This document shows, one piece after another, positions 1-42,119 of a stretch of 64,000 nucleotides of DNA (its first letter is position 1; each line of letters starts with the position of its first letter). The DNA is from Gammaproteobacteria bacterium. Its GTDB lineage: Bacteria > Pseudomonadota > Gammaproteobacteria > Steroidobacterales > Foliamicaceae. The notes under the pieces are model-generated. The model was not told where the DNA came from. It ran no database searches and saw only the letters and a program-made list of their open reading frames with translations. Made by a program: the position numbers and the translations under genes. The DNA lies in contig CBDATM010000001.1 in NCBI GenBank assembly GCA_965200225.1, positions 1,551,878 to 1,615,877 of the forward strand, given 5' to 3'.

Positions 1-425
1 TGGCGATGTCCAACCGTAACGCCATCGAGAAAGCCGTGCGGCCCCTGTACGACGAATTCCAGCGGCAACTGAACCGTCAGGAGAGCCTGGTGCAGCGGTT
101 CCAGTTCATTTCTCCGGCGATCATGATGCAGTTGGCGCTGAACGAGATATCCGGGACCAGCGCAGATCGCTACGAGCACTTTCTGAACCAGGCTTACGAT
201 TTCCGGGGAGAGTGGAACGAATTCTTCACGGTGAAGTTCCTTCAGCGCAGCCCGCTGACACCCTCGGACTACGATCAGTTTCCGGCTTTCGAGTACCGCG
301 AGGAGCCATTCGGCACGGTGCTGATGCGTCTGGTTCCGTCGTTGCTGGGAATACTGGTGTTGCTTGTTGGCGCGATTCTGATTCCGTTTCTTGGGCTGCG
401 GCGTTATCAGGTTGCGACGTCGTAA
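1..425 (+). CDS. ABC-2 type permease / DUF3526 family membrane protein, 3' part (5' end lies upstream of window)
   Basis: Open frame from window edge to TAA 423-425; RFQFISPAIMMQLALNEISGTS...FLNQAYDFRGEW followed by a C-terminal TM helix resembles DUF3526 permease C-termini. Confidence 0.65.
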   Translation, partial: AMSNRNAIEKAVRPLYDEFQRQLNRQESLVQRFQFISPAIMMQLALNEISGTSADRYEHFLNQAYDFRGEWNEFFTVKFLQRSPLTPSDYDQFPAFEYREEPFGTVLMRLVPSLLGILVLLVGAILIPFLGLRRYQVATS

Positions 426-445: not shown

Positions 446-608
446 GTGCGCTATCGCGTTGGTTCTTCCGCCCCTCGTCCCGCTCCCTCGCCTTTCGGGA
501 GACGCATGAATCCATCCATGGAGCTTGGTTCCGGCATCCTGCCTTCAACACTCCCGCAAGGCGAGGGGGCGCGGGACGAGGGGCGGAAGAACCAACGCGA
601 TAGCGCAC
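446..608. repeat. Long hairpin (REPIN/MITE-like) element, copy 1
   Basis: Arms 446-501 and 551-608 are reverse complements (outer 38 bp perfect); 49-nt loop 502-550 is 44/49 identical to the loop at 8329-8377. Confidence 0.9.
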
Positions 609-726: not shown

Positions 727-2004
727 TCAGAAGTTGTAGCGCAGGCTGATGGCCGCAAAGCTGTCGCGCCGGGTGTAGTAGTGGATGTCGCGCTCGTCGA
801 TTTCGAGCACCGCGGCTACCTCCGCATCCAGCGACCAGTGATCGGACAGGCGGCGCTCCAGCAGCAAGGCCATCGCGTTGGTGTTCCGCCCGCCCACATC
901 CATGATCAGGCTCAAGCTGACGCGGGTGTCTTGCACGTCATTGAGAGCCAACTGGGCAGCTACCGCAAGCTCATTCTCGAACACGCCGGGCGATCGCGCG
1001 GGCGTTGCGTAGTCTCCCCGATCGTCGTAGTGCCACTCGCTGATCAGCGTCAGATCGGCGGCGGAGTCGAACAACGAATACAGCGCATATTCCACGCCGG
1101 TGGAGAACGCCAGGTAGTTCTCTTCCACGCCCAGCAGATTGGCGGCGCCGGAACGTTGTATCGCCTCCGCCTTGAGCAGCCAGGGCCCGAGCGTGAACTG
1201 CATGTCCAGGCCGAACTGACGGATCTGTTCGTAGTACTGAAGGAACTTCAGTTTGCCGTCGCTCCCGAATTCAGGCACGCCGCGGGGCTCCCGGCTGGTG
1301 CCGTCGAACACGCTCAGCCCCAGATCCAGGGCGCCGAAGTTCTGACTGTAACGGGCGGCCAGATCCGTGTGCCATCGGCCGGCGCTGCTTTCGTACTGCA
1401 CATTGTCCTCTTCCAGCAGAAACGGCAGGCGCAGGCGGCCGTGGCGTCCGGGAAAAGTTCGCGGGCGGTGCCCCGGAAGGCCGAAAAGCTCCAGGATTCC
1501 CCAATCCCCGGAAAGCGTGAAATGGGCCATGAATTGTCCCAGCCTCTCGTCGCCGCCGGGGTGCTCCACAGCATCGACCTGGTTGATGATGTCAACCAGC
1601 CGCTGTGCCTCCAGAACCCCCCAGAAAACCCGATCGAAGCCCAGCCGCAGTTCCCAGCCATTGTCGCCCGCATCGCCGTACAACATCAGGTAGGCTTCGC
1701 GCAGATCGGCGTGCGTGCGCCGCGAATCCGCGGCGTCCAGGCGAAAGAACGGCTTGATGGTAATGCTTCTGCCCTGCGTGTCCTCGATATAGAACTCCGG
1801 TTCCAGAAAAAAACCGCTGGCATGATCGCGCTGGCTCGGGTGCAGGGCAGTGTCCGGATACCAGCGGCTTTCCAGGTTGATGGCGCCGGAAAATTCGGAG
1901 AAAGCGATTTCCGCTGCCGCCAGCGCCGGCAGCGCGAGCGTCCCTGCAAGCAGGACAGCGCCAATGGCCTTGCGCTTGAGGAGGAGGATAGGGGATCGGG
2001 GCAA
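727..2004 (-). CDS. Outer-membrane beta-barrel protein accompanying the RND/LolA-like export module
   Basis: ORF 727-2154, likely start TTG 2004; signal peptide KRKAIGAVLLAGTLALPALAAA; DLREAY, LRLGFDRVFWG motifs; C-terminal aromatic ISLRYNF typical of OM barrels. Confidence 0.7.
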   Translation of the reverse strand: MPRSPILLLKRKAIGAVLLAGTLALPALAAAEIAFSEFSGAINLESRWYPDTALHPSQRDHASGFFLEPEFYIEDTQGRSITIKPFFRLDAADSRRTHADLREAYLMLYGDAGDNGWELRLGFDRVFWGVLEAQRLVDIINQVDAVEHPGGDERLGQFMAHFTLSGDWGILELFGLPGHRPRTFPGRHGRLRLPFLLEEDNVQYESSAGRWHTDLAARYSQNFGALDLGLSVFDGTSREPRGVPEFGSDGKLKFLQYYEQIRQFGLDMQFTLGPWLLKAEAIQRSGAANLLGVEENYLAFSTGVEYALYSLFDSAADLTLISEWHYDDRGDYATPARSPGVFENELAVAAQLALNDVQDTRVSLSLIMDVGGRNTNAMALLLERRLSDHWSLDAEVAAVLEIDERDIHYYTRRDSFAAISLRYNF

Positions 2005-2324
2005 GCTGCCGGGGCAGGCGCGCCTTTTCGTACGCCTCTTAGCGCGCCACACGGAATGCATGGCGGATCCATACGGCGCGCTTTCGGCAAAACGCGGCGA
2101 CTTGCGGCATTCGTGTTCCAGGTATTCGTGTTCCATTGAGCTGCTCATGCGCACGCAAATTGTATCGCTCCTGCGTTTGCCATCTGGCGAGGGACTGCCT
2201 GACCATTGCGGAAATAAATGAAGGCGCTCCTTGCTTTTGGGCAGTATTCTTTAGAATCTGCTATTATCCTTCCAAAGCGCCAATCGCGGACCATGATGTT
2301 CCCGGTGGCTAGTTAACCGGTACG

Positions 2325-3609: not shown

Positions 3610-5949
3610 GTGAGGATCCAATTGCGGCTCGATAACTACACGCATTTCCTGTTCCGCTTTCGCTGGCTGGCGGTAGCGCTTTCCCTGCTGGTCACGCTTG
3701 GCCTGGGAGCGGGGCTGGAGCGGATCACCGTCGAGAACAACTACCGAATCCTGTTCAACGAGGACGACCCGCGCCTGATCGCGCTCGACACGCTCGAAGA
3801 GTCATTCAGCAAGTCCAACGCCGTGCTGATCGCGGTTACGCCGGTTGACGGCACCGTGTTCACGCGCGACGGGCTCGCCGCTGTTCACGCCCTTACGGAG
3901 GCGGCGTGGACCACCCCGTACGCGAGCCGCGTCGACTCGCTCACGAACTACGATCACAGCGAGGCCGACGGCGACGACCTGATTGTGGGGCCGCTTGTCG
4001 AAGATCCGGCCACGCTGAGCGACGCCGATCTGGCGCGAATCGAGGACATCGCGCGCAACACGGTGGATCTGGTCGGCAACCTGGTGTCGCGCGATGGAAG
4101 CACGGCCGGGATCGTGGTCAACTTCGTCACGCCCGACGAGTCGGAACAGACGCTTGCCGAAATCACGGCCTACCTCAATTCGCTCCTTGACGAGGGGCGC
4201 GCCAGCTACCCGGGCACCGCCTATCGCATGACGGGCTACGTGGTGGTCAACCAGGCCATGGGCGAAGCCACGCAGCGCGACTCCGAGACGCTGGTGCCGT
4301 TGGTGTTTGTGGGCATCCTGGTTCTTACCGCGGTGTTTCTGCGTTCCGCATTCGCCACCATCGCGGTCATCTCGGTTGTTATCGTAACCGTGGCGTCCGC
4401 CATGGGGTTCGTGGGCTGGACCGGCATGGTGATGTCGCCCGCCAACCCGGGCATACCGATCATCATCATGGTGATCGCCATCGCCGATTCCATCCACATC
4501 GCCTCCAACGCCCTGTTGGCCATGCGTGACGGCATGGCCAGGAAGGAGGCGATTGTCCAGTCGATGCGCATCAACGCGTGGCCGGTATTCCTGACGTCGC
4601 TGACCACGGCCATCGGCTTTTTGAGCCTGAATGCATCGGATGCGCCGCCGTTTCAGGTCATGGGCAATGCCGTCGCCTTCGGTATCCTGTGCGCGTTTAC
4701 TTTCTCGCTGGTTCTGCTGCCGGCGCTGCTTTTCATCCTACCCGTCCGCGCCGCGCAGTCGCGCAAGCGCGGCTTCTTCGGCAAGCTTGTGGATTCCATC
4801 TTCGCGCGGCTCGGGATGGAGAGCGGCTTCTTCGACCGGCTTGCGGATTTCGTGCTCGCGCGGCGCCGTGCCATGCTGGTGTCCTTCGTGGCCCTCACGG
4901 TTGTGGTGGCTGCCGGCATTCCCCGTATCGAACTTGGCGACAACCTGACGCGATTCTTCGACGAGAGCTTCCAGATCCGGCTCGACTCGGACTTCATCGG
5001 CGAGAACCTGACCGGCATCGACAAGCTTGAATACTCCCTGGATTCCGGGAGCGAAGACGGCATAACCGATCCCGGATATCTGCGCAAGGTCGATGCCTTC
5101 GCCGAATGGCTGCGGCAGCAGCCCAACGTCAGCTATGTGCAGGCCTTGTCGGATGTCATGAAACGGCTCAACCGCAACATGCATGAGGACGACCCGGACT
5201 ATTATCGGCTGCCCGACAATCCGGAACTGGCGGCGCAATACCTGCTGCTTTACGAGTTGTCCCTGCCGTTCGGTCGGGACCTCAACGACCGCCTGGACGT
5301 GAGCAAGTCCGCCACGCGCCTGTCCGTGAACATCGAGAACGCGACCTCCCGGGACTTGCGCAATTTCGACAGCCGGACGCAGGCCTGGCTGAGCGAAAAT
5401 GCGCCGGAATTCACGCAGCAGGCCACCGGCTTGAGCGCCATCGTGGCGTACATGACGGAACAGAACATCGACAGCATGCTCGTTGGCACCCTCATTGCCA
5501 TGGTCCTCGTTTCGTTGATCCTGGTGTGGGCGCTGAAGAACATCCGCATCGGCATTCTGAGCCTGCTGCCGAACATCGTTCCGATACTCCTGACCTTCGG
5601 CCTGTGGGGCCATTTCGTCGGCCAGATCGGGCTCGTGTCCACCGTTGTGCTTTCCATCGTCTTCGGCATCGTCGTGGACGACACGATCCACTTCCTGAGC
5701 AAGTATCTGAGAGGCCGCGGCAATGGGCTCGCGCCTCCGGAGGCCGTGCGCTACGCTTTCCGCACGGTGGGCCACGCCCTGTTCACGACCACGACGGTGC
5801 TGGGAGTGGGCTTCATGGCCCTGTTCTTCTCGGGATTCGAGCTTACCTGGGTGCTTGGCGTGCTCGTAACCATCACGCTGTTTTGCGCATTGGCCACCGA
5901 TTTTCTGCTGCTCCCGGTTTTGCTGCTCGCCATTGATCGAAAGGGCTGA
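3610..5949 (+). CDS. MMPL/RND-family lipid exporter
   Basis: 779 aa, two repeats of TM + periplasmic loop + 5 TM; IAIADSIH, VFLTSLTTAIGF, GIVVDDTIHF motifs. Confidence 0.9.
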   Translation: MRIQLRLDNYTHFLFRFRWLAVALSLLVTLGLGAGLERITVENNYRILFNEDDPRLIALDTLEESFSKSNAVLIAVTPVDGTVFTRDGLAAVHALTEAAWTTPYASRVDSLTNYDHSEADGDDLIVGPLVEDPATLSDADLARIEDIARNTVDLVGNLVSRDGSTAGIVVNFVTPDESEQTLAEITAYLNSLLDEGRASYPGTAYRMTGYVVVNQAMGEATQRDSETLVPLVFVGILVLTAVFLRSAFATIAVISVVIVTVASAMGFVGWTGMVMSPANPGIPIIIMVIAIADSIHIASNALLAMRDGMARKEAIVQSMRINAWPVFLTSLTTAIGFLSLNASDAPPFQVMGNAVAFGILCAFTFSLVLLPALLFILPVRAAQSRKRGFFGKLVDSIFARLGMESGFFDRLADFVLARRRAMLVSFVALTVVVAAGIPRIELGDNLTRFFDESFQIRLDSDFIGENLTGIDKLEYSLDSGSEDGITDPGYLRKVDAFAEWLRQQPNVSYVQALSDVMKRLNRNMHEDDPDYYRLPDNPELAAQYLLLYELSLPFGRDLNDRLDVSKSATRLSVNIENATSRDLRNFDSRTQAWLSENAPEFTQQATGLSAIVAYMTEQNIDSMLVGTLIAMVLVSLILVWALKNIRIGILSLLPNIVPILLTFGLWGHFVGQIGLVSTVVLSIVFGIVVDDTIHFLSKYLRGRGNGLAPPEAVRYAFRTVGHALFTTTTVLGVGFMALFFSGFELTWVLGVLVTITLFCALATDFLLLPVLLLAIDRKG

Positions 5950-5991
5950 CACGGACCGATGAGCCGGGTGTAACCAGATTGGGAGAATGAC

Positions 5992-7362
5992 ATGAGCACG
6001 GGTACAGTTGTCATCGTTGGCGGCGGAACCTCCGGACTGAGCGCCGCCTATACGCTCAAGAAACACGGCATCCGGCCCATCGTGCTCGAAGCGAACGACC
6101 GGGTTGGCGGCCGGATGGGCGGAGACCGGGTGGATGGCTTTTGCCTGGACGAAGGCGCGGACTTCCTGACCCCGTCGCACGATGTCGCCCGCCGCTTTTG
6201 CGGCGAGTTGGGCCTGAATCTGATCCCGTGGCGACTGAATCTCGCCTGGTACAGAAAAGGCCGCTTCATCCTGACCCGGCCGATCCTTTCCCCTCTCGAT
6301 GTGCTGCGGAACATTCCGGCGTACTGGACTTTGGGCATGTTGTCGCCCGGAGGAATGTCCACCATGCGCAAGCTGGGCAAGATGGTCAAGCAAAATCCGG
6401 AGCATCTGAGTTTCGGCAGCACCTCGCGGGTCGCCGAGCTTGACGGGGACGACAGCATCCTCGATTACCTGGACCAGATCGGCGCGCCCAAAGACATGCG
6501 GGTCATGCTGGGTGGCTTCCTCGAGATGACGATGAGCGATCTCGACGAGATGGGCGCCGCCTATGCGATGACCTATTTCGCGCAGATCATCATGCGGGCG
6601 CCGGAGTTGGCCGTGCCGGAGAAAGGCCTCGGCGAAATGACCCACGCCCTGGCCGCGGCTTGCGATGCCGACATCCGCGTCTCGACGCCGGTGGAGCATG
6701 TGGCGATCGAGGACGGAGCCGTAAGCGGCGTCGTGGCGAATGGTGAGCGGATCGAAGCCGACGCGGTGATCTGCGCCACATCAGCCACCAAGGCGCTGGA
6801 CATCCTTCCCGGATTGCCCGATGAGGTGCGCGGCGCGCTTGGCCAGGTCCGTTATTCGCGCGGATGCCGCGTGGTTATCGGTCTGGACCACCCGCCGCTT
6901 CCCCCCGGGATACAGGGCGTCCTGTATCCCGAGGACGAGACGCCGCTGATCGTGGACCGGTCCATCACCTTGCCTGCCTGCGTGCCGCCGGGCAAGAGCA
7001 CGCTTGATCTGCTGGTCGGCCGCGAGCGCGCTGCGCAACTGTTTCCGCTGGACGACGACGAGATCAAACACCAGCTTCTGTCCGAGGCGCGCCCCATGGC
7101 GCCGCCCGGCTCGAACCTTCCGGGCGACGATGATGGATTGTTCACGCGCGTGTACCGTTGGCGGGAAGCCGTCTGCACCGGAGCGCCCGGCAGCCTGAAG
7201 GCGATCGCGGACATGCGCCGCGCGCGGCAGGAAAGCGGCAGTGTCGCCAACCTGTTCCTGGCCGGCGACTACACGCGCATGCCTTCCCTCAACGGCGCTC
7301 TGGCCAGTGGCGTCGATGCCGCCGACGAGGTTGCGGCCTTCCTCGCGTCTCGTTCTGCCTGA
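5992..7362 (+). CDS. FAD-dependent oxidoreductase, flavin amine oxidase / protoporphyrinogen oxidase-like family
   Basis: VVIVGGGTSGLSAA dinucleotide fold, LEANDRVGGR, C-terminal LFLAGDYT...LNGALASG. Confidence 0.85.
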   Translation: MSTGTVVIVGGGTSGLSAAYTLKKHGIRPIVLEANDRVGGRMGGDRVDGFCLDEGADFLTPSHDVARRFCGELGLNLIPWRLNLAWYRKGRFILTRPILSPLDVLRNIPAYWTLGMLSPGGMSTMRKLGKMVKQNPEHLSFGSTSRVAELDGDDSILDYLDQIGAPKDMRVMLGGFLEMTMSDLDEMGAAYAMTYFAQIIMRAPELAVPEKGLGEMTHALAAACDADIRVSTPVEHVAIEDGAVSGVVANGERIEADAVICATSATKALDILPGLPDEVRGALGQVRYSRGCRVVIGLDHPPLPPGIQGVLYPEDETPLIVDRSITLPACVPPGKSTLDLLVGRERAAQLFPLDDDEIKHQLLSEARPMAPPGSNLPGDDDGLFTRVYRWREAVCTGAPGSLKAIADMRRARQESGSVANLFLAGDYTRMPSLNGALASGVDAADEVAAFLASRSA

Positions 7363-7400
7363 CAGACCACAGGCGGGGTTTCCTCATAGGGTTAAGGACC

Positions 7401-8243
7401 ATGAAAGCTTCATTCATCACGCTGATTCTTCGCTCGAAACTCGCCGCCGCATGGCTGTTTCCGCTGCTGGCGCTGCCGACGCTGCTGGCGCCGCTGCATT
7501 CCGGCGTGGCGCAGGAGGATTCCGCAGCGCAGGCGGAAGGCTTGCGCATTGCCGAGGAAGCCTCGCAGCGCGGCAAGGGATTCGGGAATTTTTCTGCGAA
7601 AATCGTAATGACGCTTCGCCAGAAGGGCGGCAGGGAGAGCGTTCGGGCGATGCGGACCAAAGTGCTGGAGGTGGAAGGCGATGGCAATCGCAGCATCTTC
7701 GTGTTCGATCAGCCGCGCGATGTGAGGGGTACCGCGCTGCTGATCCATGCGCACCCCGATGACGCAAACGAGCAATGGCTGTTTCTCCCGGCGCTGTCGC
7801 GAGTCAAGCGAATCAGTTCATCGAACCGATCCGGGTCGTTCATGGCCAGCGAGTTCTCCTACGAGGACCTGGGGGAGCCGGAAGTCCCCAAGTACACCTA
7901 TCGATACCTGCGCGATGAACCTTGCGGCGAATTGTCCTGCACGGTGACGGAATGGATTCCGGTGGAGAGGGAATCGGGTTACACCCGCCAGGAGGTATGG
8001 CACGACAAGGACGAATACCGCATCATGAAGGTGCAGTACTACGATCGCAAGAAGTCGCATCTCAAGACGCTGGAAATGTCGGACTACCAGAAATATGCGG
8101 GCAGTTTCTGGCAGGCGGGCACCATGGACATGCAGAACCACCAGACGGGCAAGAGCACCACAATGCAGTGGTCCGAATTTGTCTACGGCGGGGATCTCAA
8201 CGAGAACGACTTTACGCAGACGGGGCTGCGAAGAGTGCGGTAG
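7401..8243 (+). CDS. Outer membrane lipoprotein-sorting protein (LolA-like)
   Basis: ATG 7401 after AAGGA; signal peptide; PRDVRGTALL, QWLFLPALSRVKRI, GSFMASEFSYEDL, YYDRK...HLKTL motifs. Confidence 0.85.
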   Translation: MKASFITLILRSKLAAAWLFPLLALPTLLAPLHSGVAQEDSAAQAEGLRIAEEASQRGKGFGNFSAKIVMTLRQKGGRESVRAMRTKVLEVEGDGNRSIFVFDQPRDVRGTALLIHAHPDDANEQWLFLPALSRVKRISSSNRSGSFMASEFSYEDLGEPEVPKYTYRYLRDEPCGELSCTVTEWIPVERESGYTRQEVWHDKDEYRIMKVQYYDRKKSHLKTLEMSDYQKYAGSFWQAGTMDMQNHQTGKSTTMQWSEFVYGGDLNENDFTQTGLRRVR

Positions 8244-8280
8244 ATACGGCGCGGCGACGATCCCTGCGGCGGGTGCTTCC

Positions 8281-8426
8281 GTGCGCTCGCATTGCTCCCT
8301 GCGCTCCTCGCCCCCCGCATTGCGGGAGACGCATGAATACATCCCTGTAGCTTGGTTTCGGCATCCTGCCTCCAACACTCCCGCAATGCGGGGGGGCGAG
8401 GAGCGCAGGGAGCAATGCGAGCGCAC
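8281..8426. repeat. Long hairpin (REPIN/MITE-like) element, copy 2
   Basis: Arms 8281-8328 and 8378-8426 are reverse complements apart from one extra G; loop 8329-8377 matches copy 1. Confidence 0.9.
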
Positions 8427-8533
8427 ACCGGCGCGGGGCGTCGGGGACAGAAGGGCGTTGGGGGTGGGAGAGGGCCGGGGGTGTGGGGGTTTGGGGAATG
8501 GTGGGCTTTGTGGCCGGACGGTGAATGGGCGAA

Positions 8534-9451
8534 TCAGAAGAGGCCGTGGCGGATGGCTAGCCAGAGTTTGCGGGCCTTGCTGACTGAAACTGGGGCGGCA
8601 AGTTTTTCCCAGCCGCGTTTCTCCAGGCGGTCGAAGGTTTCCCGGTAAACCTTCATCATGATTACGGCAGGCTGCATGAGCCGCCCGCGGATTCCCGAAA
8701 GCAGCGCGTCGGCCTCTCCATAGAATTCGTGCGCCATTTTGGCCATGTCCAGGCAGGATTGGGCGAAAGCCGGATGGGTAATGATGCGATCGAGAGATTT
8801 TTCTCCGATGCCGTTTTCCCGCAGAATGTCCAGGGGCACATAGAGACGCTGAATCTTGGCGTCTTCCGATACGTCTCGCAGGATGTTGGTAAGTTGCAGC
8901 GCGTTGCCGAGCGCCACGGCAATTCGGGGAGCGGGTTTCCGGGTCATTCCGAAGGCGTGAATCGACAGCATTCCCACAGCGCCGGCCACCTTTCTGCAAT
9001 AGCCCAGCAAGTCCCCCACGCTTTCCATGCGCACCGTAGGCGGCGCGTCGATTTCCATGCCGTCGATTACCGCCAGTAACTCCTCCTGCGGCAAATCGAA
9101 GCGATCCACCGACTCCAGCAGCGCTCGCGTAACCGGCCATTCCGGCTTGCCGTCGTAGAGCCGCCCGATTTCTTCCCGCCAGCCGTCAAGCGCTCGCAAT
9201 TTGGCGTCGGTTTCCCCGGGTTCGTCGGCGATGTCATCCACTTCGCGACAGAATGCGTAGATGGAATAAATTGCGTCGCGCCGTTCCTGCGAAAGGAGGC
9301 GCATGGCCCAGTAAAAGGAAGTGCCCGATTGCCGAACCACCTTGTACACATACTCCCGCGGGTCCACATCCAGATCCAGCGAAGCCGGATTGCTCCGGAC
9401 CTCGGCGACGGAATCCGGCAGTATCAGGTTGGTGGACTTTTCGCTTGTCAT
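8534..9451 (-). CDS. hpnD: Presqualene diphosphate synthase HpnD (squalene/phytoene synthase family)
   Basis: SGTSFYWAM, IYAFCREVDDIADE, YCRKVAGAVG, ALQLTNILRDVSEDA, RLYVP motifs; ATG 9451 directly after upstream stop at 9454. Confidence 0.8.
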   Translation of the reverse strand: MTSEKSTNLILPDSVAEVRSNPASLDLDVDPREYVYKVVRQSGTSFYWAMRLLSQERRDAIYSIYAFCREVDDIADEPGETDAKLRALDGWREEIGRLYDGKPEWPVTRALLESVDRFDLPQEELLAVIDGMEIDAPPTVRMESVGDLLGYCRKVAGAVGMLSIHAFGMTRKPAPRIAVALGNALQLTNILRDVSEDAKIQRLYVPLDILRENGIGEKSLDRIITHPAFAQSCLDMAKMAHEFYGEADALLSGIRGRLMQPAVIMMKVYRETFDRLEKRGWEKLAAPVSVSKARKLWLAIRHGLF

Positions 9452-9453
9452 CG

Positions 9454-10575
9454 TTACGCCGCCACGGGCCCAGGGAGGCTTCGGGTAAGCAGTCGGAACA
9501 GGATTTTCAGGGCCGTATTGGAGCGAGCCAGGGCGCTGGTGATGATTGCCACGGCCCACACATTGCGACGCGAAATCTTCACTTCCTGCCCGCTGGAGAA
9601 GGACGGCATGCGGTGGATGCGCCGCAGGGTCAGCACCGCAATGCCGAGCGGCCACAGGCAGGAACGGCGGATTCCGGTTTCGCGGCCGGGGATCATCGTG
9701 GTGTAGCGTAGCGCATTGCACAGATGATAGTGGGTGATGGCCACGATTCTGTGCAGCCCTTCCACGAATCCGGGCGCGGCTTGGCCCGGCGACAGGGAGC
9801 TCAGTTCGCAGCCGCTGGCGCCGAACACGTCCCGAGGCAGCCAGCAGGCGCCGCGGCGCTGATCTTCCCACATGTCCTTGAGGATATTGATCATCTGCAA
9901 GCCCTGGCCGAAGGAAACCGACAGCGCCACCAGTTCGTCGCGCTGCCTGCCCATCCTATTACAGTAATCGCAGAACAGCGTGGTGAGCGTCTCGCCCACG
10001 ATTCCGGCCACGTGATAGCAATACTGGTTCATCCGCCGCACATCGGCCAGCCCCTCGGCATTGGCGTTGCGCTGAAATTCCACCATGCCCTGCGACATGA
10101 TCGTTACGCAGCGCAGGATCGCATCCTGTTGCACGCGACTGAGGCGCCTCGTGATGCGTGCCACGCGCGGTGTGGCGGCAATCAGTTCCCGTTCGGCTTC
10201 GGTGGTTGCGGATGACAGCAGGGCGCCCAGCTCGCGGGCAAAGGATTCGGCGTCGCCTCGCCCGGCCACGATGCTGATGAAGCGCTCCGAGAATTCCTGT
10301 TTCCGTTCCACGGCGAGAGCCGGGTCGTCTTCGATGGTGTCGGCGATGCGACACACCAGGTAGGCGTTGCCTACGGCGTGATAGAGCGTGCCCGGCAACT
10401 GCGCGATGGTCAGCGCGAAGGTGCGGGCTACGCCTTCGAGGCGCTCCTGCTGCCAGGCAATGTCCTGCCGGGCCACTTCTTCCGCGAGGCGCGGATCAGA
10501 GGAATGTTTCGGATTCACGACAAGCAATCGGTTGAAATATGCGGGTTCCCCCTGATTGCCAGAATATTTTACCAC
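9454..10575 (-). CDS. Squalene synthase-like head-to-head prenyltransferase (SQS type); start uncertain (GTG 10575 or 10518)
   Basis: VARTFALTI, AYLVCRIADTIEDD, YCYHVAGIVGE, FGQGLQMINILKDMWED, GACWLP motifs. Confidence 0.85.
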   Translation of the reverse strand: MVKYSGNQGEPAYFNRLLVVNPKHSSDPRLAEEVARQDIAWQQERLEGVARTFALTIAQLPGTLYHAVGNAYLVCRIADTIEDDPALAVERKQEFSERFISIVAGRGDAESFARELGALLSSATTEAERELIAATPRVARITRRLSRVQQDAILRCVTIMSQGMVEFQRNANAEGLADVRRMNQYCYHVAGIVGETLTTLFCDYCNRMGRQRDELVALSVSFGQGLQMINILKDMWEDQRRGACWLPRDVFGASGCELSSLSPGQAAPGFVEGLHRIVAITHYHLCNALRYTTMIPGRETGIRRSCLWPLGIAVLTLRRIHRMPSFSSGQEVKISRRNVWAVAIITSALARSNTALKILFRLLTRSLPGPVAA

Positions 10576-10612
10576 GGCATGTTTTCTGCTCGGGTGTGAG
10601 GTGCCGGGCCTG

Positions 10613-10917
10613 TGTAGAGAGCACATAACTTGTCCGGTTTTAGAGCACATGAAGTGTCCGGTCGTATATCTTGCCGAAGTCTACACCCCGGCGTTCAACG
10701 CCGAGTTTCGCCGCACGCCCGCGGAGGACAAGAGCGCTTTCGTGCCGATGGCCAGCCGCGCCCTGAGCTCCTGGAGAGGGTGGCATGACGGCCTCGGCCC
10801 GCTCCCCGCTCCGGTCGCTACGCTTCCTTCACGGGGAGCGCGAACCCCTCTTGAGGGTAAACTCACAACCGGACACTTCATGTGCTCTAAAACCGGACAC
10901 TTCCATTTGTCTGCAAA
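10613..10917. mobile_element. Non-autonomous IS-derived element (ISNCY/IS1202-like transposase remnant between inverted repeats)
   Basis: Perfect 32-bp inverted repeat 10631-10662 / 10868-10899 with internal repeated AGAGCACAT/GTCCGGT units, left end starts TGT; interior encodes YLAEVYTPAFNAEFRRTPAEDKSAFVP, resembling ISNCY transposase sequence. Confidence 0.7.
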
Positions 10918-35357: not shown

Positions 35358-35452
35358 CCGGCAAGTGAAGGCGGCGGCCGCCCGGGTAAAGGGTTCGGAC
35401 TGTGCGGGCGGATGGGCCGCCGCTTGGCAAACTAGGCGTGGAGAACGATGAA

Positions 35453-36085
35453 ATGGCAGACCAGAAGACAGTTAAACGGCGCGTAGGGCGCTATTTCCTG
35501 GCGCTGGCCGTCGGCAGTTTCGCGGCCTTGTCTCTTCTCTGGGTAATGCAGTTTCTGATCGCGACCGGTAAGGCGGCGATTACAGAGGCTGTGGATGCCC
35601 GGTTCGTGGACTTTGTGCGGGTCAAGCGCGAGGAAACGCTGGAGCGCAAGGAGGAGAAGCCGGAAAGACCGCCGGAGCCGGATGAGGCGCCGCCGGACAT
35701 TCCGCAGCAGGACATGGATTCTTCGGACTACGATTCGGTGACGGCCGTAGCGCCGGTGGGCCCCGGGGCCGATGTGAACCTGGACAGTGAGTTGGGTGAT
35801 TTCAGCCTGGCCGAAGGTGACTACCTGCCGATCGTGAAGGTGGCGCCCATGTATCCGCGGCGAGCGCAGTCGCGGGGCCTTGAGGGCTATTGTGACCTTG
35901 AATTTACCGTCACGCCACTGGGCACGACCAGCAACGTAAGCGTGATCTTCTGCAGCAGTTCACTATTCGAGCGGGCCTCGGTGCAGGCCTTGCTCAAATT
36001 CAAGTACAAACCCCGAGTGGTGAACGGGACTGCTATCGCGGTGCCCGGACTGCGTCACAGGATTACTTTCCAGATTGAAGACTAA
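35453..36085 (+). CDS. tonB: Energy transducer TonB
   Basis: N-terminal TM, Pro-rich linker, PMYPRRAQSRGLEG, KFKYKP. Confidence 0.9.
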   Translation: MADQKTVKRRVGRYFLALAVGSFAALSLLWVMQFLIATGKAAITEAVDARFVDFVRVKREETLERKEEKPERPPEPDEAPPDIPQQDMDSSDYDSVTAVAPVGPGADVNLDSELGDFSLAEGDYLPIVKVAPMYPRRAQSRGLEGYCDLEFTVTPLGTTSNVSVIFCSSSLFERASVQALLKFKYKPRVVNGTAIAVPGLRHRITFQIED

Positions 36086-37418
36086 AGTTGTGAATGCCAG
36101 GTTCGGCCTTGTTGTTGTCCCCGTTGTTGCGGCACTTTTCTGTCTGATTCTCGTTGCGCCGACGCAATCCGGCTGGGCGCAGGAGGAGGGACAGGAGGAG
36201 CAGAAGACGCGTCGCACGGAGGCATTGAGCGAGAGGGTCCACCGGAGGCTTTCAGAGGCGCAGGAAGCGTTGGAGGCCGATGATCATGCAAGAGCGGAGA
36301 CCTTGTTGCGCGAGATTACGGAACTGCGCAATCTCACGCCTTACGAGCAGGCCCAGACCAACAACTTCTATGGCTTCGTTTACATCGACAAGGAAGACTA
36401 TCCGGGAGCAATCGAGGCTTTCAAGCAGGTAATTCAGATCGGGGGGCCGGACGTGATAGGCCCCGGTTTGTACCACCAGACCATTCGTACGCTCGCACAG
36501 TTGTATATGCAGGTGGAGAATTTCAGTGAGGCTATCGTATATGCCCGTCAGTGGCTCGATTCCCAGGAAAATCCGCCGCCCCGCGACTATGTGCTTGTGG
36601 CCATGGCTCATTTTCAGTTGGAGCAATGGCGTGAAGCGCTGGAGTACGTGTCCCTGGCGATTGAAAAAGCCCAGGCCACCGGTGTGGAAGTCGACGAAAA
36701 CTGGTGGCGCTACATGGTCGCAGCACACTGGGAACTGGAAGAGTTTCCCGAGGCCCTGGATATCACCCGGATTCTGTTGACCCAATGGCCCAAGAAACAG
36801 TACTGGATGCAGCTTCAGGGGCTCTACTCCATACTCGAAGACGAGGGCAAACAGTTGGCGGCGTACTGGTGCCTGCACGATCAGAACCTTCTGAGCAGGA
36901 GTTCCGAATTGGTAGGCATGGCCCAGTTGTTTATGCTGGCGGAGGTTCCCTACAAGGCCGCAGTAGTTCTTCAGGAGGGGATCGACAACGGTTCGATTGA
37001 GGAGACCCCCCAGAATTACCGCCTGTTGGCGCAGGCGTGGCAGTTGGCCCAGGAGGACAGGAAGGCCGTGGGGCCGCTGCGAAAGGCCGCAGAGAGTGAA
37101 GAAAGCGATGAGGACAGGAGCCAGCTTTACGTGCGCCTGGCCGAAAGCTACAACGCCCTGAGCGAATACGGAGAGTGTGCTTCGGCAGCCCGCCAGGCCC
37201 TTCGCGAGGGTGAGCCGAAAAGCGAGGGAAGAACCTACATGCTGCTGGGTCAATGCCTTTTCGAGCAGGAAAAGTACGACGAGGCGGGCGATGCCTTTGC
37301 CCGCGCGGCTCGCGACAGCGACACGCGCAGAGCCGCTACCCGCTGGCAGAATTACATTGAAAGGGAAGTAGCGCGACTTCGGGACCTGGATGCGCGCTTG
37401 GCGCGCTACGGGAGCTAG
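36075..37418 (+). CDS. Tetratricopeptide repeat protein (TtpD-like)
   Basis: Signal peptide, repeated helical TPR-like units, last gene of TonB cluster. Confidence 0.8.
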   Translation: MKTKVVNARFGLVVVPVVAALFCLILVAPTQSGWAQEEGQEEQKTRRTEALSERVHRRLSEAQEALEADDHARAETLLREITELRNLTPYEQAQTNNFYGFVYIDKEDYPGAIEAFKQVIQIGGPDVIGPGLYHQTIRTLAQLYMQVENFSEAIVYARQWLDSQENPPPRDYVLVAMAHFQLEQWREALEYVSLAIEKAQATGVEVDENWWRYMVAAHWELEEFPEALDITRILLTQWPKKQYWMQLQGLYSILEDEGKQLAAYWCLHDQNLLSRSSELVGMAQLFMLAEVPYKAAVVLQEGIDNGSIEETPQNYRLLAQAWQLAQEDRKAVGPLRKAAESEESDEDRSQLYVRLAESYNALSEYGECASAARQALREGEPKSEGRTYMLLGQCLFEQEKYDEAGDAFARAARDSDTRRAATRWQNYIEREVARLRDLDARLARYGS

Positions 37419-37452
37419 CCGTTCCCGCCTCATACGAACAGGTTAGCTTCGC

Positions 37453-37773
37453 GTGCCAACGGTTCATTTCATGGATTGCCACGGGAATCCTCGTGACCTT
37501 GAGGTTCCCGTCGGCTGCACGCTCATGGAGGTAGCGCTGGAGAACGATGTAGAGGGGATTGTGGCCGAATGCGGCGGATGCTGCGCCTGCGCCACCTGCC
37601 ACAGCTATATCGACCCGGAATGGGTGGATCGCCTGCCGCCCATCAACGACATGGAAGACGCCATGCTGGATTGTGCCCTGGACCGCAAGCCAAACAGCCG
37701 CCTGAGTTGTCAGATCCAGATGACGGCCGAGCTGGCTGGCCTCAAGCTGCAAGCTGCCGACAACGAGGCCTGA
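37453..37773 (+). CDS. 2Fe-2S ferredoxin (putidaredoxin/adrenodoxin type)
   Basis: AECGGCCACATCH, SRLSCQI. Confidence 0.93.
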   Translation: MPTVHFMDCHGNPRDLEVPVGCTLMEVALENDVEGIVAECGGCCACATCHSYIDPEWVDRLPPINDMEDAMLDCALDRKPNSRLSCQIQMTAELAGLKLQAADNEA

Positions 37774-37805
37774 GCAGCACTATTTCCTGGCCCCTCTTTT
37801 CGGGG

Positions 37806-38174
37806 CTACAGTTTGCCTTCCTCGAACTCCCGGTGCACTTCCACCACCGGAGGCATGGCGGCTACCGGGGTCTTTTCTTCCTTCTCGTTCTGGACCACGC
37901 GCATCACCCGTTCGATGTAGCGCCGGCGCGTTGCTTCTCTTTCCACTTCCGCCTGCTTGTCGGGCAGGAAGTTGTCGATATCCTCGCGCTTGAGCACGCC
38001 GCCTTTCTCGATCAGCCGCTCGACGCTGTCGAGGCGGTCCCGCAGCACGGACACTTCACCGATCAGGGTCATGAGCATGCCCAGAAGCCGATCCGTGGCC
38101 GGATCCGAAAAGTAACGGGGGCGCTTTCCCTTGGCGGTACGGCGCAGACGGGGTGCTTCGCCGTCTGCGCTCAC
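37806..38174 (-). CDS. Conserved hypothetical protein coupled to the methyltransferase
   Basis: 122 aa; RPRYFSDPATDRLLGMLMTLIGEVSVLRDRLD; start overlaps upstream stop. Confidence 0.65.
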   Translation of the reverse strand: MSADGEAPRLRRTAKGKRPRYFSDPATDRLLGMLMTLIGEVSVLRDRLDSVERLIEKGGVLKREDIDNFLPDKQAEVEREATRRRYIERVMRVVQNEKEEKTPVAAMPPVVEVHREFEEGKL

Positions 38175-39301
38175 GCCCGGATCCCTGCCAGCGACTTGAA
38201 GCTCATTTCATCCCGGGAGTAGTTGCGCTGCGACACGTCCAGGTTGGACTTCAATAGTTCCAGGCCTACTTCTTCGGTCGTCCAGCCGCCCTTCAGAGCT
38301 TCCGCGACCAGGTCGATGTCGGTCATGCAACGTGCGAAGGACTCGTTATTGTTGTAACTCTCCCAATCGTGCATGAACTGGTCGAAGATGGTGTCGCCGC
38401 GCGGAATATCGAAGTGCAGCATCCGCCCTCCGCTGCTCAGCAGGCGGCGCGTTTCGGCGAATATCCGCGGCAGGGCCTTCTTGGAAGTCTCGTGCAACAT
38501 GATGTGGGAGACGACCAGGTCGAAGCTGCCGTCCTCATAGTCGGTGGCTTCGGCGTTCTGCTGGCTGAAGTGCACCCCAACGCCAAGCGACTCCGCCCGC
38601 GTATGGGCGTACCGCAGCATCGGCGCACCAACGTCGATCGCATGAATCTCCGCTTGGGGAAACGCTCGGCCCCAGGGCAGGGTGCTGTTGCCGGAGCCGC
38701 AGCCCATGTCCAGGATCTTGCGGGGCTTGAAATCCGGCCAGAGGCCACGCATGCCGTTGCACAGCATGTGACCCAGGAAGTCCCCTTCCGGCCCCCAGGC
38801 TCCGGCCATGTACATCTGCAGGCCGGTCTCGTACAGCGCGCCGGCGGTAATGTCGTCGGGCGCCTGGTCGGTGTGGTAGCCGCCCGGCTGGATATGAATG
38901 TCGTGCACGGTGTGGTAGCGCGGAATCTCCAGGTTGGGGTTGAGCTGCAAGCTTCCGCCGGCGTCTCCGTTTGTGGACCGAAAGCGCTCGATCATGTCCG
39001 GTAGCTGCCGCTCGACCGTATCTACCGTAGCGTCCCACATCATCTCCTGGCTACGGCGGGTCAGCGCGCTCCAGAACTGGTAATACGGCTCCGCCATCAT
39101 CTTCTTGCGGATCTCGTCGCGGTGTTGAGGTGGACGCCCGGTTTCCTTTTCGATGGCCGGCTTGATCTTCTCCTCGTACAGGGAGAAATTGCCCGGCATG
39201 ATGGTGCCGGACAGGTGGGCCCGGAAAGCGCGCACGAAGTCCATTCGGGAAGCTTCGTCGTGGTTGGCGTCGGGCGTCAGGGCATGGACGTTACGAAACA
39301 T
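38171..39301 (-). CDS. Class I SAM-dependent methyltransferase with long N-terminal extension
   Basis: ILDMGCGSG motif I, AIDVGAPML, FDLVVSHIMLHE, LSSGG. Confidence 0.9.
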   Translation of the reverse strand: MFRNVHALTPDANHDEASRMDFVRAFRAHLSGTIMPGNFSLYEEKIKPAIEKETGRPPQHRDEIRKKMMAEPYYQFWSALTRRSQEMMWDATVDTVERQLPDMIERFRSTNGDAGGSLQLNPNLEIPRYHTVHDIHIQPGGYHTDQAPDDITAGALYETGLQMYMAGAWGPEGDFLGHMLCNGMRGLWPDFKPRKILDMGCGSGNSTLPWGRAFPQAEIHAIDVGAPMLRYAHTRAESLGVGVHFSQQNAEATDYEDGSFDLVVSHIMLHETSKKALPRIFAETRRLLSSGGRMLHFDIPRGDTIFDQFMHDWESYNNNESFARCMTDIDLVAEALKGGWTTEEVGLELLKSNLDVSQRNYSRDEMSFKSLAGIRA

Positions 39302-39416
39302 CGGTCTTGCCTCCTGTGATGGCTAGTGTCGTGGCCGGCTCATGTTGCCGCTGTCCGCGCGCAGCAGACAGCTCGAATGGAGAATAGCACGGCTTTGCGG
39401 GTCGTCTATGCGGGCG

Positions 39417-40280
39417 TTACGCAGGCGCGATCAGTTCTACCCATTCGCCCACAGGGCCGCGCCACATGGCGGCATTCCGGCCGTGGTACGGGGCGCCGGT
39501 TTGCCCTGTCAGCACGTCTTCGCCGAGAGCGTCGGAAACAAAGCTCACCATGCTGATGGAAGGCGGCAGCCGTCCTTCCAGCACGGGGCGCGGCGTGGCG
39601 GTTTCCGGCATTTCGTCCAGCTCGATCAGATTGCTGCCGGACAGCCGCATTGTGGAGAGCATGAACCGATGGCTGGACGGCAGGCCGTACACCTGTCCCA
39701 TCACCGTGATCTTGACCGGGCGCGGATCGCTGGCGGACAGTCCGAATCGCTTGCCCCAGCCTTCGCTGAGCATTTCCACGCTGGGACCGCCCAGAATTAC
39801 GATAAAGGTGCGATCCACGAAATCCACCGCTTCGGGCACATCAAATTCCGTGCGGCGCTTGAACATGGTGAGATACAGGAACTCCTTGGCCGGCCCCTGC
39901 ACCTGCATGGCCCGGATCGCGTCGCTGAAAGACAGATCGGCGGGTGGTCCCAGGATGTGAAAGGGCGTGCCCATCAACTGTTTTTCCAGCGCGTCGGTGT
40001 CCTGCACCATTACTTCCGCGGCGTTCCAGCCCCAGCACAGATAGGCTTCGTAGCCTGGCGTGGCAGGCTGCTCCACGAACCGGAAATGAAAACCCTCCGT
40101 GGTCTCCGGGGCCATCATCAGGCATTGCGCGCCCTCCACTGCCTCGGCGCCCCAGAATGCCGCCAGTTCGCCTGAAATCCGCCCGCCGGCCGTGGCCCGG
40201 TAGCCCAGATGCTGATAGGCGTCTTCCATGGCGCCCAGGTCGGGCGCGGCTATGGTGACGCAGTTGATGGGGCCGATCAC
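39417..40280 (-). CDS. VOC/glyoxalase-fold protein (two-domain)
   Basis: CVTIAAPDL, GWNAAEVMVQD, GPAKEFLYLT, GPVGEWVELI. Confidence 0.6.
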   Translation of the reverse strand: MIGPINCVTIAAPDLGAMEDAYQHLGYRATAGGRISGELAAFWGAEAVEGAQCLMMAPETTEGFHFRFVEQPATPGYEAYLCWGWNAAEVMVQDTDALEKQLMGTPFHILGPPADLSFSDAIRAMQVQGPAKEFLYLTMFKRRTEFDVPEAVDFVDRTFIVILGGPSVEMLSEGWGKRFGLSASDPRPVKITVMGQVYGLPSSHRFMLSTMRLSGSNLIELDEMPETATPRPVLEGRLPPSISMVSFVSDALGEDVLTGQTGAPYHGRNAAMWRGPVGEWVELIAPA

Positions 40281-40900
40281 AGGCCTGCCAGGTACGAACG
40301 TGCCTGCTCCATACTGATAACCTCGCCAAATTTTTTGCTGATGTCAAAGAGATTGGCTTCGTGCGGGCCTTCGTCGCGATCGCCGGTAGCTTCCCGCACC
40401 ACGATCGGAATGTAGCCGTATTGCAACGCATCCACCGCCGAAGTCCGCACGCAGCCGCTGGTGCTCAGGCCGCAGATCAGCAGCGTGTCCACGCCCAGCG
40501 ATGCCAGCGTGGCGGCCAGATGGGTGCCGAAGAAGGCGCTGGGATACTTTTTGGTGATGACGACCTCGCCCTCGGCGGGCTCCAGGCCGTCCCCGAAGGC
40601 ACAGTACTTCGATCCCCGGACGAAATTCGCCAGCGCCGGAACCTTGCGGTAGAACACGCCCCCTTCCACGCCCGCGGGATCGTATTCCACGCAGGTGTGA
40701 AAGATGGGAATGCCGGCCTTGCGGCACTCTCCCAACAGTTTCACTGCCTGCTCCAGCTCCGCCTCCACGCCCGCGTATAGCGAGCACTCGGGGTCCAGAT
40801 AGGCGCGCACGAAGTCGATGATCAGCAGCGCCGGGCGCGCCCCCGGCTCGATGGAGCCGCCGAACCCCGCCTTGCTGTAATCCTGGTCCAGTTCCGCCAT
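40277..40900 (-). CDS. Isochorismatase-family cysteine hydrolase (N-carbamoylsarcosine amidase / maleamate amidase-like)
   Basis: PALLIIDF, TKKYPSAFFGT, GLSTSGCVRTSAVDA. Confidence 0.9.
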   Translation of the reverse strand: MAELDQDYSKAGFGGSIEPGARPALLIIDFVRAYLDPECSLYAGVEAELEQAVKLLGECRKAGIPIFHTCVEYDPAGVEGGVFYRKVPALANFVRGSKYCAFGDGLEPAEGEVVITKKYPSAFFGTHLAATLASLGVDTLLICGLSTSGCVRTSAVDALQYGYIPIVVREATGDRDEGPHEANLFDISKKFGEVISMEQARSYLAGL

Positions 40901-40916
40901 AACGGTAGCTCCGCGG

Positions 40917-42119
40917 CTAGATGATCCCTCGCTGTTTGAGTCCCGCAAGCCTGTCGCCGCTCAAGTCCAGCAGGCCGCGGTAGATTTCGTCGTTGTGTTG
41001 TCCGATTTCCGGTGCCGAGGCATGGATTTCCCCGGGGGTAAGCGACAGCTTCGGCGCCACGTTCTGCATCTTCAGTTCGCCGAACTTCGGATGCATCACC
41101 GATACGATGGCCTCGCGAGCCTTGAAGTGCGCGTCTTCGAGCATTTCCGGGGCCCGGTAGATCTTGCCCGAGGGCACGCCACTCTCGTCCATCAGCGCTT
41201 CCAGCTCCGCGGCATCCTTGGTTGCGGTCCATTCCGCGATGAGATCGTCGAGTTCCTGCTGGGTCTCGCCGCGCGCGGCATGGCTGCTGTAACGGGGATC
41301 GTCGGCCAGTTCCGGCCGTCCCATGGCTGCGCTCAAGCGCCGGAACACGCTGTCCTGGTTGGCTGCGATCAGAATGTAGGTCCCGTCTCGCGTGGGATAG
41401 ATGTTCGAGGGTGCCACCCTGGGCAGGATGGAGCCGGTGCGCTCGCGAACATACCCCGCCTGCTGGTATTCGGTGATCAGCGACTCCATCATGTTGAGCA
41501 CCGCCTCGTAGATCGCCGAGTCCACGATCTGCCCTTCGCCGGTGCGCTCCCGGTGATGCAGGGCGGACAGCGCGCCGATGCAGGCGAAGGTGGCCGCAAG
41601 CTGGTCGCCTATGCTGATGCCTACGCGGCTGGGCGGGGTGGAGGGATCGCCAGCCACGTAGCGCAGTCCGCCCATCGCTTCGCCGATAGCGCCATAGCCG
41701 GCGCGGCTGGAGTAGGGGCCGGTCTGGCCGTAGCCCGATACGCGGATCAGGATCAGCGACGGATTGATTTCGCGCAGTTCCTCCCAGGAGAGGTTCCAGC
41801 GCTCCAGCGTTCCCGGACGGAAATTCTCCAGCAGAAAGTCGGCCTTGGCGACCAGCTCCTTGAGGATGTCCTGGCCTTCTTTTTCACGCAAATTCAACGT
41901 GATCGCTTTCTTGTTGCGGGCAATTACAGGCCACCACAGCGACATGCCGTGAGCCTTTTCCTGCCCCCAGTCCCGCATCGGGTCCGGTCGGTCCGGCGCT
42001 TCGACCTTGATCACTTCGGCGCCGAAATCCGCCATCAGTTGTCCGCAAAACGGGCCCGCCAGAAGCGCGCCGAGTTCAATCAGTCTCAGATCGGCCAGCG
42101 GGCCGGTCCTTTCCGCCAT
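40917..42119 (-). CDS. Class III CoA-transferase (CaiB/BaiF)
   Basis: LAGPFCGQLMADFGAEVIKVE, ARNKK, ENFRPGTLERW, SGYGQTGP. Confidence 0.95.
   Translation of the reverse strand: MAERTGPLADLRLIELGALLAGPFCGQLMADFGAEVIKVEAPDRPDPMRDWGQEKAHGMSLWWPVIARNKKAITLNLREKEGQDILKELVAKADFLLENFRPGTLERWNLSWEELREINPSLILIRVSGYGQTGPYSSRAGYGAIGEAMGGLRYVAGDPSTPPSRVGISIGDQLAATFACIGALSALHHRERTGEGQIVDSAIYEAVLNMMESLITEYQQAGYVRERTGSILPRVAPSNIYPTRDGTYILIAANQDSVFRRLSAAMGRPELADDPRYSSHAARGETQQELDDLIAEWTATKDAAELEALMDESGVPSGKIYRAPEMLEDAHFKAREAIVSVMHPKFGELKMQNVAPKLSLTPGEIHASAPEIGQHNDEIYRGLLDLSGDRLAGLKQRGII

Follow-up and report, generated by a model that had tools for sequence, protein, structure and literature searches.

Intergenic palindromes with a conserved three-way-junction tip: a probable family of small mobile elements in a Foliamicaceae genome and its relatives

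The two longest inverted repeats in a 64,000-nt stretch of a Gammaproteobacteria bacterium genome (family Foliamicaceae; contig CBDATM010000001.1, positions 1,551,878 to 1,615,877; the whole stretch is referred to below as the window) are hairpins at 446-608 and 8281-8426, and the loops of the two are nearly identical. The question raised by this locus is what such a hairpin is, what keeps its arms paired and what keeps its loop unchanged. We consider it probable that the hairpins are small, non-autonomous, mobile (or formerly mobile) intergenic palindromes resembling foldback elements or MITEs (miniature inverted-repeat transposable elements), which combine a freely drifting, template-switched stem with a selected folded tip. 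The comparisons described here demonstrated that the hairpins belong to a family with a covarying structure, that its members have moved, that their arms have been copied from each other and that their cores have been inverted.

A dispersed family with a covarying core

Covariance model R1 gave 106 hits over genome and metagenome loci, which bore out the dispersed family proposed in a preliminary description of the window. The parts of the two window copies are as follows.

446-608, + strand: element copy 1, whole hairpin, 163 nt (inverted repeat, DNA fold, R1 score 96.8 bits)
446-501, + strand: left arm of copy 1 (5' strand of stem P1), pyrimidine-rich, its 3' end being the conserved GGGAG (anchored arm alignment with 551-608)
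502-550, + strand: core of copy 1, three-way junction, 49 nt (pair counts in a 15-copy alignment, family-wide tables), made up of J1 ACGCATGAA at 502-510, hairpin 1 at 511-522, J2 GCTT at 523-526 and hairpin 2 (P3) at 527-549
533-543, + strand: tip of hairpin 2 in copy 1, GGCA-TCC-TGCC
551-608, + strand: right arm of copy 1 (3' strand of P1), purine-rich (inverted repeat, arm alignment)
426-445, + strand: putative outer left flank of copy 1, GCCGGCATATGCGTTCGCCG, judged by its sequence to be common to the copy at locus L005
8281-8426, + strand: element copy 2, whole hairpin, 146 nt (inverted repeat, DNA fold, R1 score 98.5 bits)
8281-8328, + strand: left arm of copy 2 (paired with 8378-8426)
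8329-8377, + strand: core of copy 2, 49 nt (sequence and pair counts), made up of J1 at 8329-8337, hairpin 1 TACA-TCCC-TGTA at 8338-8349, GCTT at 8350-8353 and hairpin 2 (P3) at 8354-8376
8360-8370, + strand: tip of hairpin 2 in copy 2, GGCA-TCC-TGCC
8378-8426, + strand: right arm of copy 2 (inverted repeat, arm alignment)

In the anchored alignment, the arms of copy 1 formed 54 Watson-Crick pairs with one T:G pair, one mismatch (T:C) and a 2-nt bulge, and those of copy 2 formed 48 Watson-Crick pairs with one bulged base. Folding energies as single-stranded DNA were -80.1 kcal/mol for copy 1 and -76.4 kcal/mol for copy 2; the fold z-score was -16 for each, and none of 200 dinucleotide shuffles folded as well. 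The two cores were identical at 44 of 49 positions, and the differences between them include a C:G to A:T double change in hairpin 1 (TCCA-TCCA-TGGA in copy 1 versus TACA-TCCC-TGTA in copy 2). The near-perfect hairpins, the core identity and both mini-hairpins were therefore as first described. The accompanying statement that the arms share only their ends was too strong, since 40 of 56 positions align between copies 1 and 2; judged by arm sequence, these two copies and that at L005 can be placed in one arm lineage. The L005 copy also has an outer inverted repeat, ggctatgcgttcgccgg ... cggcgaacgcatagcc, the right-hand partner of which is absent in the window. A degenerate 61-nt core pattern matched exactly these two window sites and matched in none of 100 shuffles, and a filter-free covariance-model scan of the whole window returned no third copy.

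The conserved tip of about 50 nt is a three-way junction atop the long stem P1. Its parts run in the order J1 (ACGCAUGAA as RNA), hairpin 1, J2 (GCUU), hairpin 2 and AC (1-2 bases), which leads back into P1. Hairpin 1 has the family consensus NCCA-UCCN-UGGN. Hairpin 2 consists of a closing pair, a conserved A.A or G.A mismatch, 7-8 bp and the loop AUCC(N); in the sponge subfamily an internal loop of pyrimidines breaks its helix. Hairpins 1 and 2 nearly duplicate each other (CCAUCCNUGG), suggesting a dimeric reader. Core length also varies: a short variant of 40 nt was found at L003b, L006b and L015b, a 71-nt variant with a longer hairpin 2 tip at L087, L042 and L024, and a 97-nt variant at L007b.

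Across 15 copies, 97.8% of cells were paired, compared with 35-56% in slid-partner controls; 14 pairs were changed on both sides, and none of 500 shuffles did as well. Covariation in hairpin 2 extended through the family, where its closing pair is G:C, A:U or C:G beside the conserved mismatch and its inner pairs alternate among U:A, C:G and G:C. The first pair of hairpin 1 is C:G, U:A or G:C. All core helices covary, and the folded, covarying core on a long stem that had been described from two copies holds for the family. Because the core by itself is thermodynamically ordinary (z = -0.2 to -3), the structural evidence is the covariation. A covariance scan of the window at the gathering thresholds of Rfam 15 matched no family, and scans at E <= 10 with element 1 and two other cores returned only noise or matches, scoring far under threshold, to generic hairpin models of microRNA precursors. 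With many copies, covariation and no Rfam match, none of the outcomes that the preliminary description had named as refuting it came about. The family, with its many covarying copies, is widespread and previously undescribed, and its three-way-junction motif is absent from Rfam; a literature search with core sequence strings returned nothing, and one on 'Foliamicus' returned no papers.

Twelve true copies, identified by a pattern that left both mini-hairpins free, were found among GTDB species-representative genomes. Apart from one Candidatus Foliamicus genome, their hosts are metagenome-assembled genomes named 'Gammaproteobacteria bacterium' whose sample names are of the sponge type. A metagenome scan gave 79 loci with family members; gene calls in the related loci, which carry L numbers here, were heuristic and based on GC content at third codon positions (GC3). 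Locus L014, from Candidatus Foliamicus sp., is syntenic with window positions 35447-42769 at approximately 81% nucleotide identity, indicating that the window organism is a relative belonging to the order Foliamicales. The largest metagenomic subfamily comprised Ga0210101 and related contigs. The best named protein relatives of its host are Desulfuromusa/Desulfuromonadales (72-75% identity), and the family is probably present in a Desulfuromonadales-like organism. A diverged member was found at 10 BLAST places in 1.83 Mb on the chromid of Halomonas sp. PA16-9; in the copy at L095 (NZ_CP040452.1, 400.8 kb), CGCTGTAAA replaces ACGCATGAA in J1, and P1 has a symmetric 3-nt internal loop. This chromid was the sole match when PLSDB was searched by blastn with the consensus core, while element 1 matched nothing in that database and viral contigs contained no family match.

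The core was nearly unchanged across hosts with 41-70% GC. The copy at L040 3142-3243 (identical at L055) lies on a contig with 41% GC and has AT-rich arms, and its junction and loop sequences are unchanged, showing that the core sequence was held against strong compositional drift. Copies in the same genome likewise had different arms and near-identical cores (L008, L012 and L013 in COS2_bin_9, as well as the two window copies). L010 and L026 come from a syntenic pair of loci with 87% identity, and the element lies in the same intergenic region of both. Here the cores were identical at 48 of 50 positions and the arms at 23 of 35; BLAST returned no alignment of the intergenic flanks, and the flanking genes alone aligned. 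Conservation of the core while arms and flanks diverge indicates that it is constrained in place. We therefore propose that the tip of about 50 nt would be under purifying selection in place and would be read as a folded single strand, probably as the module by which a protein acting in trans recognises the element. Both the existence of such a protein and its identity are inferred. The core is shared by Halomonas, sponge symbionts and, probably, Desulfuromonadales-like bacteria, which would mean that something conserved reads it.

Mirrored arm changes and core inversion

P1 was about 30 +/- 3 bp long in most lineages; at 48 and 56 bp, the stems of the window copies stand apart as outliers. 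The arms diverge at roughly the rate of neutral DNA, yet they remain 98% Watson-Crick paired: in 35 clean-arm copies, 1040 of 1061 arm pairs were Watson-Crick, five were G:T and seven were A:C. When related copies were compared, 314 of 374 left-arm differences had their mirror image in the right arm, at the matching position of the alignment; the 374 differences comprised 126 transitions, 136 transversions and 112 indel columns. Between L008 and L015, for example, 7 of 31 arm positions differed and all seven were mirrored, with cores identical at 49 of 50 positions. The mirrored indels and transversions and the scarcity of wobble intermediates point to copying from arm to arm rather than to stepwise compensation of the kind seen in RNA.

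The core itself was found in both orientations. In the L010/L026 pair, the element has homologous arms, and the core lies on opposite strands. At L074 the inner segment is inverted relative to asymmetric outer arms in comparison with about 28 sister copies, and the breakpoints of this inversion fall within a perfect 11-bp inverted repeat. Template switching between the arms of an inverted repeat is documented to homogenise the arms and to invert the spacer (PMC8604942), and also to create and maintain perfect hairpins (PMC8794818). The mirrored arm changes and the core inversions match this published signature, which argues for template switching here. That the arms are kept paired by copying one from the other at the DNA level is well supported by these sequence comparisons. 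The mechanism that we propose is that the sequence of P1, a stem that usually measures about 30 bp but reaches 48-56 bp in the window, would be essentially unconstrained; during replication one arm would repeatedly serve as the template for the other, through template switching or intramolecular recombination, and the same process would occasionally invert the core.

Selection for the long stem, as had been suggested for the window copies, gives way to this explanation, because mirrored transversions and indels, few G:T pairs and inverted cores are what copying between DNA arms leaves behind. The perfect covariation of the long stem is thus not evidence of selection at the RNA level, which bears on how 'compensatory' stems are read in RNA-motif discovery. 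The family also offers a natural case in which template switching keeps bacterial hairpins of 30-56 bp perfect during sequence drift, with mirrored indels and core inversions.

Mobility of the copies and candidate readers of the tip

Presence/absence polymorphism at orthologous sites was found in two comparisons. The copy at L014 sits between two tandem genes, and the orthologous intergenic region of the window (39302-39416) has no copy; the two intergenic regions measure 287 nt (L014 3332-3618) and 115 nt, respectively. L006 and L060, which are syntenic with 85% identity, showed three presence/absence differences; one of these is a copy in L060 that separates two genes whose spacing in L006 is only 16 nt. 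On these comparisons, the copies appear to be mobile or formerly mobile. Related arms were shared by copies at non-orthologous loci (L012a and L014; L008, L015 and L010; window copy 1 and L005), indicating that arms are inherited when an element is copied and are not made from the target. For the same reason we rejected an origin of the arms from the target site and insertion into pre-existing palindromes; in addition, the window contains no 'empty' long palindromes. Besides the element, the L014 intergenic region carries an additional GC-rich hairpin upstream.

The clearest termini were those of the Ga0210101 lineage, where the element is about 185 nt long, has terminal inverted repeats TCTGGTTATCC...GATAACCAGA and, in at least six copies (L035, L075, L054, L067, L018 and L030), is flanked by target-site duplications that are AT-rich and 8 bp long. 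From its sequence, this element would qualify as a classical MITE, and the combination of terminal inverted repeats with 8-bp duplications suggests a cut-and-paste (DDE-type) enzyme rather than an HUH enzyme. A PLSDB search with its terminal repeat returned no match. A second lineage has other termini (CTGATTAGG...CCTAATCAG) round the same core, and the arm termini differ by lineage (GTGCGC in the window, GCCYTT, CGCTGG and others). In one sponge sub-lineage, six copies share an asymmetric 5' flank, G.CGCTTCGATYCC. This flank resembles the start of the core itself (GACGC-ATGAAT-CC) and J2 of the short-core variant (CTCGATTCC). At L001 5428-5476, and in the left flanks at L012, L014, L006 and L056, a solo left arm ending GGAG-ACGC adjoins a complete copy.

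Copies often cluster, with two within 0.1-8 kb at L015, L003, L006 and L012 and in the window. At L007 2327-2830, four copies lie within 500 nt in both orientations, including the 97-nt-core variant and a tandem partial duplicate; this array reflects local clustering or nesting of elements. The only recurrent neighbours of copies were housekeeping gene clusters.

Several observations weigh against a family of mobile palindromes with a selected tip. No target-site duplication was seen in the window copies or other sponge-lineage copies, and no termini were conserved across sponge sub-lineages, so that the mobility of the window copies is argued from their relatives. No transposase was found in the 52 open reading frames (ORFs) of the window scanned with Pfam, a scan that left out the ORFs at 61788-62717 and 62733-63998. 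No transposase recurred in the vicinity of copies across roughly 630 kb of related loci, and no parent insertion sequence with the same ends was present among the 79 metagenome loci. Two copies were seen in the 64 kb of the window genome. The arms at L010 and L026 resemble each other no more closely than do the arms of certain copies at non-orthologous sites, and the inversion at this pair could therefore in principle represent two independent insertions into one intergenic region. Finally, a purely selfish element would not readily account for selection on the core in place together with random orientation.

Orientation was random with respect to flanking genes: 20 copies were co-oriented between tandem genes, 18 were anti-oriented between tandem genes, 9 lay between convergent genes and 6 between divergent genes. 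Copies lie 20-80 nt past the 3' end of a gene in either orientation, and no orientation bias relative to GC skew was detected (41 against 31). Random orientation argues both against a strand-specific cis-acting RNA role and against single-strand transposition targeted to the lagging strand.

Three other explanations of the element or its tip were considered. The one that fares best reads the strand complementary to ACGCATGAA as RNA. The core would then be a portable module with two binding sites for CsrA/RsmA, and one CsrA dimer would bridge both hairpins; copies would act as dispersed CsrA sponges or as cis sites, and the long stem would be a stabiliser or an RNase III substrate. The consensus selected by CsrA in systematic evolution of ligands by exponential enrichment (SELEX) is RUACARGGAUGU, and the repeat of CsrB is CAGGAUG. 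The minus-strand loops equal both: hairpin 1 reads CC-A(G/U/C)GGAU-GG and hairpin 2 reads GCC-A(N)GGAU-GGC (GGC-AGGAU-GCC in the window), the GGA being invariant and the base just before it being the variable position. The sponge subfamily has two more GGA in the internal loop of hairpin 2, UUGGAGGCAGGGAUGCCGGAACC. The loop centres are about 22 nt apart, which is within the 10-60 nt expected for paired A(N)GGA hairpins. In the description given by the Rfam and RMfam authors, a CsrA site consists of paired GGA hairpins, and the two-hairpin TwoAYGGAY motif is predicted to be a CsrA-binding small RNA (PMC4333381, PMC4383904). In contrast to these likenesses, the GGA strand is not consistently placed for transcription, given the 20 co-oriented and 18 anti-oriented copies, and the orthologous pair L010/L026 carries opposite orientations. 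The wobble pairs of hairpin 1 favour the ACGCAUGAA strand (seven G:T versus one A:C), the invariant junctions ACGCAUGAA and GCUU are not accounted for, the loop of hairpin 2 is replaced in the 71-nt and 97-nt core variants, and the TwoAYGGAY model of Rfam gave no match. A tblastn search for csrA returned no match in the window or related loci. Overall, we regard this reading as doubtful. A compound version, in which the tip is a CsrA/RsmA module carried on a self-maintaining mobile palindrome and template-switch inversion toggles GGA against UCC in the neighbouring transcript, is more doubtful still. If it were true, the element could seed, move and toggle sponges or points of post-transcriptional control by Csr, from genome to genome and phylum to phylum.

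A repetitive extragenic palindromic (REP) or REPIN-type element would be mobilised as single-stranded DNA by an REP-associated tyrosine transposase (RAYT) or another Y1 HUH transposase, with the core hairpins as binding sites of a dimeric enzyme. Like REPs, the elements are long intergenic hairpins 20-80 nt past gene 3' ends, and a dimeric enzyme that binds hairpins would be well served by two near-identical ones in direct orientation. One strand of hairpin 1 also tolerates G:T pairs. The copy at L017 ends GTAG...CTAC, and CTAC, TCAC or TTAC is found just beyond the right arm in several group-A copies; however, only L017 begins with GTAG, and the GTAG/CGTC head is not conserved across copies. 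Arms are conserved in REPs, whereas they are variable here, and the copy number appears low. Neither Y1_Tnp nor another transposase was among the Pfam-scanned window ORFs, and none recurs near copies. The 8-bp target duplications and terminal inverted repeats of one lineage are not HUH signatures, and orientation shows no GC-skew bias, whereas single-strand transposons favour the lagging-strand template. The link to REPINs and RAYT in the preliminary description is accordingly not upheld, and we judge this origin very unlikely.

An equally slim chance is given to a host cis-acting RNA at gene 3' ends, that is, a terminator, an insulator or a block to 3' exonucleases in which the core is merely a structured loop. 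The hairpin is very stable, and copies lie just past stop codons, often between convergent genes. In an intrinsic terminator, a U/T run directly follows the GC-rich hairpin. Only the copy at L027 continues as TTTTTT; there is no T-run after either window copy on either strand, and these continue as AAACCGGGG and ACCGGCGCG. A terminator or exonuclease block needs no sequence-invariant, asymmetric 50-nt tip kept across phyla, and close relatives differ in whether they carry a copy, which can also occupy an operon spacer, as at L060. The earlier suggestion of an RNA structure in the 3' untranslated region is disfavoured by the random orientation relative to neighbouring genes.

Other identities for the core are quickly dismissed: a coding reading (a Shine-Dalgarno-like GGAG followed by ATG AAY CCA TCC) fails because the frame is broken by core lengths of 49, 50-52, 40, 71 and 97 nt, an in-frame TAG occurs in window copy 2 and in L007a, and the residues past CTT are not conserved; ARAGORN found nothing to support a tRNA-like reading of the GCTTCGATYCC flank; and to our knowledge the core does not resemble known ribozyme cores (hammerhead CUGANGA/GAAA and others).

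Both window copies are on the + strand and lie between convergent genes, as had been noted at the outset. Copy 1 is flanked by a DUF3526 gene at 3-425 (+) and an unannotated gene for 475 amino acids at 727-2154 (-). Copy 2 lies between a LolA-like gene at 7359-8243 (+) and hpnD at 8534-9451 (-), within a hopanoid/squalene cluster (3610-10650) that encodes an MMPL/HpnN-like transporter, an HpnE-like amine oxidoreductase, the LolA-like protein, HpnD and HpnC; the closest HpnD homologue found has only 60% identity. Just upstream of hpnC, a unit of about 280 bp at 10618-10899 has 35-nt inverted-repeat ends (TGTCCGGTTTTAGAGCACATGAAGTGTCCGGT...) and an internal tandem of the same motif; in appearance it is either an unrelated MITE or what is left of an insertion sequence. 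DUF222 and HNH endonuclease domains occur in two overlapping ORFs at 51589-53407, which suggests a frameshifted or split gene of the 13E12-type-repeat kind. A 25-nt palindrome within this region (52524-52623) does not belong to the family, as its score with the covariance model is only 20 bits. A gene for a MazF/PemK-type toxin at 47284-47598 (-) is preceded by an ORF of 87 amino acids at 47595-47858, and the two are probably a type II toxin-antitoxin pair.

Comparison with known systems

If the tip binds CsrA, or if it is the handle of a mobilising enzyme, the family would tie mobile DNA to post-transcriptional control or reveal a new mode of recognition. Halomonas provides a culturable host for a family member.

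The elements are closest in form to bacterial MITEs and foldback elements such as Correia/NEMIS, ERIC and Nezha, which are also short, non-coding, multi-copy and intergenic and in which the whole unit is a foldable long inverted repeat. Presence/absence polymorphism is common to both, as are the terminal inverted repeats and 8-bp duplications that occur here in the Ga0210101 lineage. In MITEs, however, the terminal repeats are conserved and recognised by the enzyme and the middle is free, whereas in the present family it is the three-way junction in the middle that lineages and phyla have in common, and the termini vary by lineage and even by copy. The lack of a detected parent insertion sequence is a further difference.

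REP and REPIN elements with RAYT (TnpA-REP) are likewise extragenic palindromes; they lie close to the 3' ends of genes and fold into long hairpins, and recognition of the single strand has been proposed for them. In REPs, a GTAG or CGTC tetranucleotide heads an imperfect palindrome of 20-40 nt, the arms are conserved among the copies of a genome around a short spacer that is not, and the RAYT gene typically has REPs on either side. The elements described here differ in having no GTAG/CGTC head, arms that are unconserved within a genome, no RAYT seen and a low copy number. REPINs have no counterpart of the conserved structured loop, and the pattern of conservation is inverted here, with a conserved tip and free arms.

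Integron attC sites are also imperfect palindromes that act as folded single strands and in which structure outweighs the sequence of the stem. Their layout is the opposite, with conserved R and L boxes at the base of the stem and a variable tip; moreover, neither an integrase nor a cassette context was seen here, where the neighbouring genes are housekeeping genes.

TwoAYGGAY RNA (RF01731) and the Csr/Rsm sponge RNAs share with the complementary strand of the core a pair of hairpins that have A(N)GGA(U) loops and are closed off by an outer stem, as well as a mismatch of two purines in one stem. They differ in their junction sequences and gave no covariance-model match even at E <= 10, and the present motif forms part of a mobile palindrome whose orientation is random.

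Template-switch (quasipalindrome) mutagenesis reproduces the homogenisation of the arms, with mirrored substitutions and indels, and the inversion of the spacer (PMC8604942, PMC8794818). It is a mutational process and not a family of elements, and it explains the stem but not the conservation of the core.

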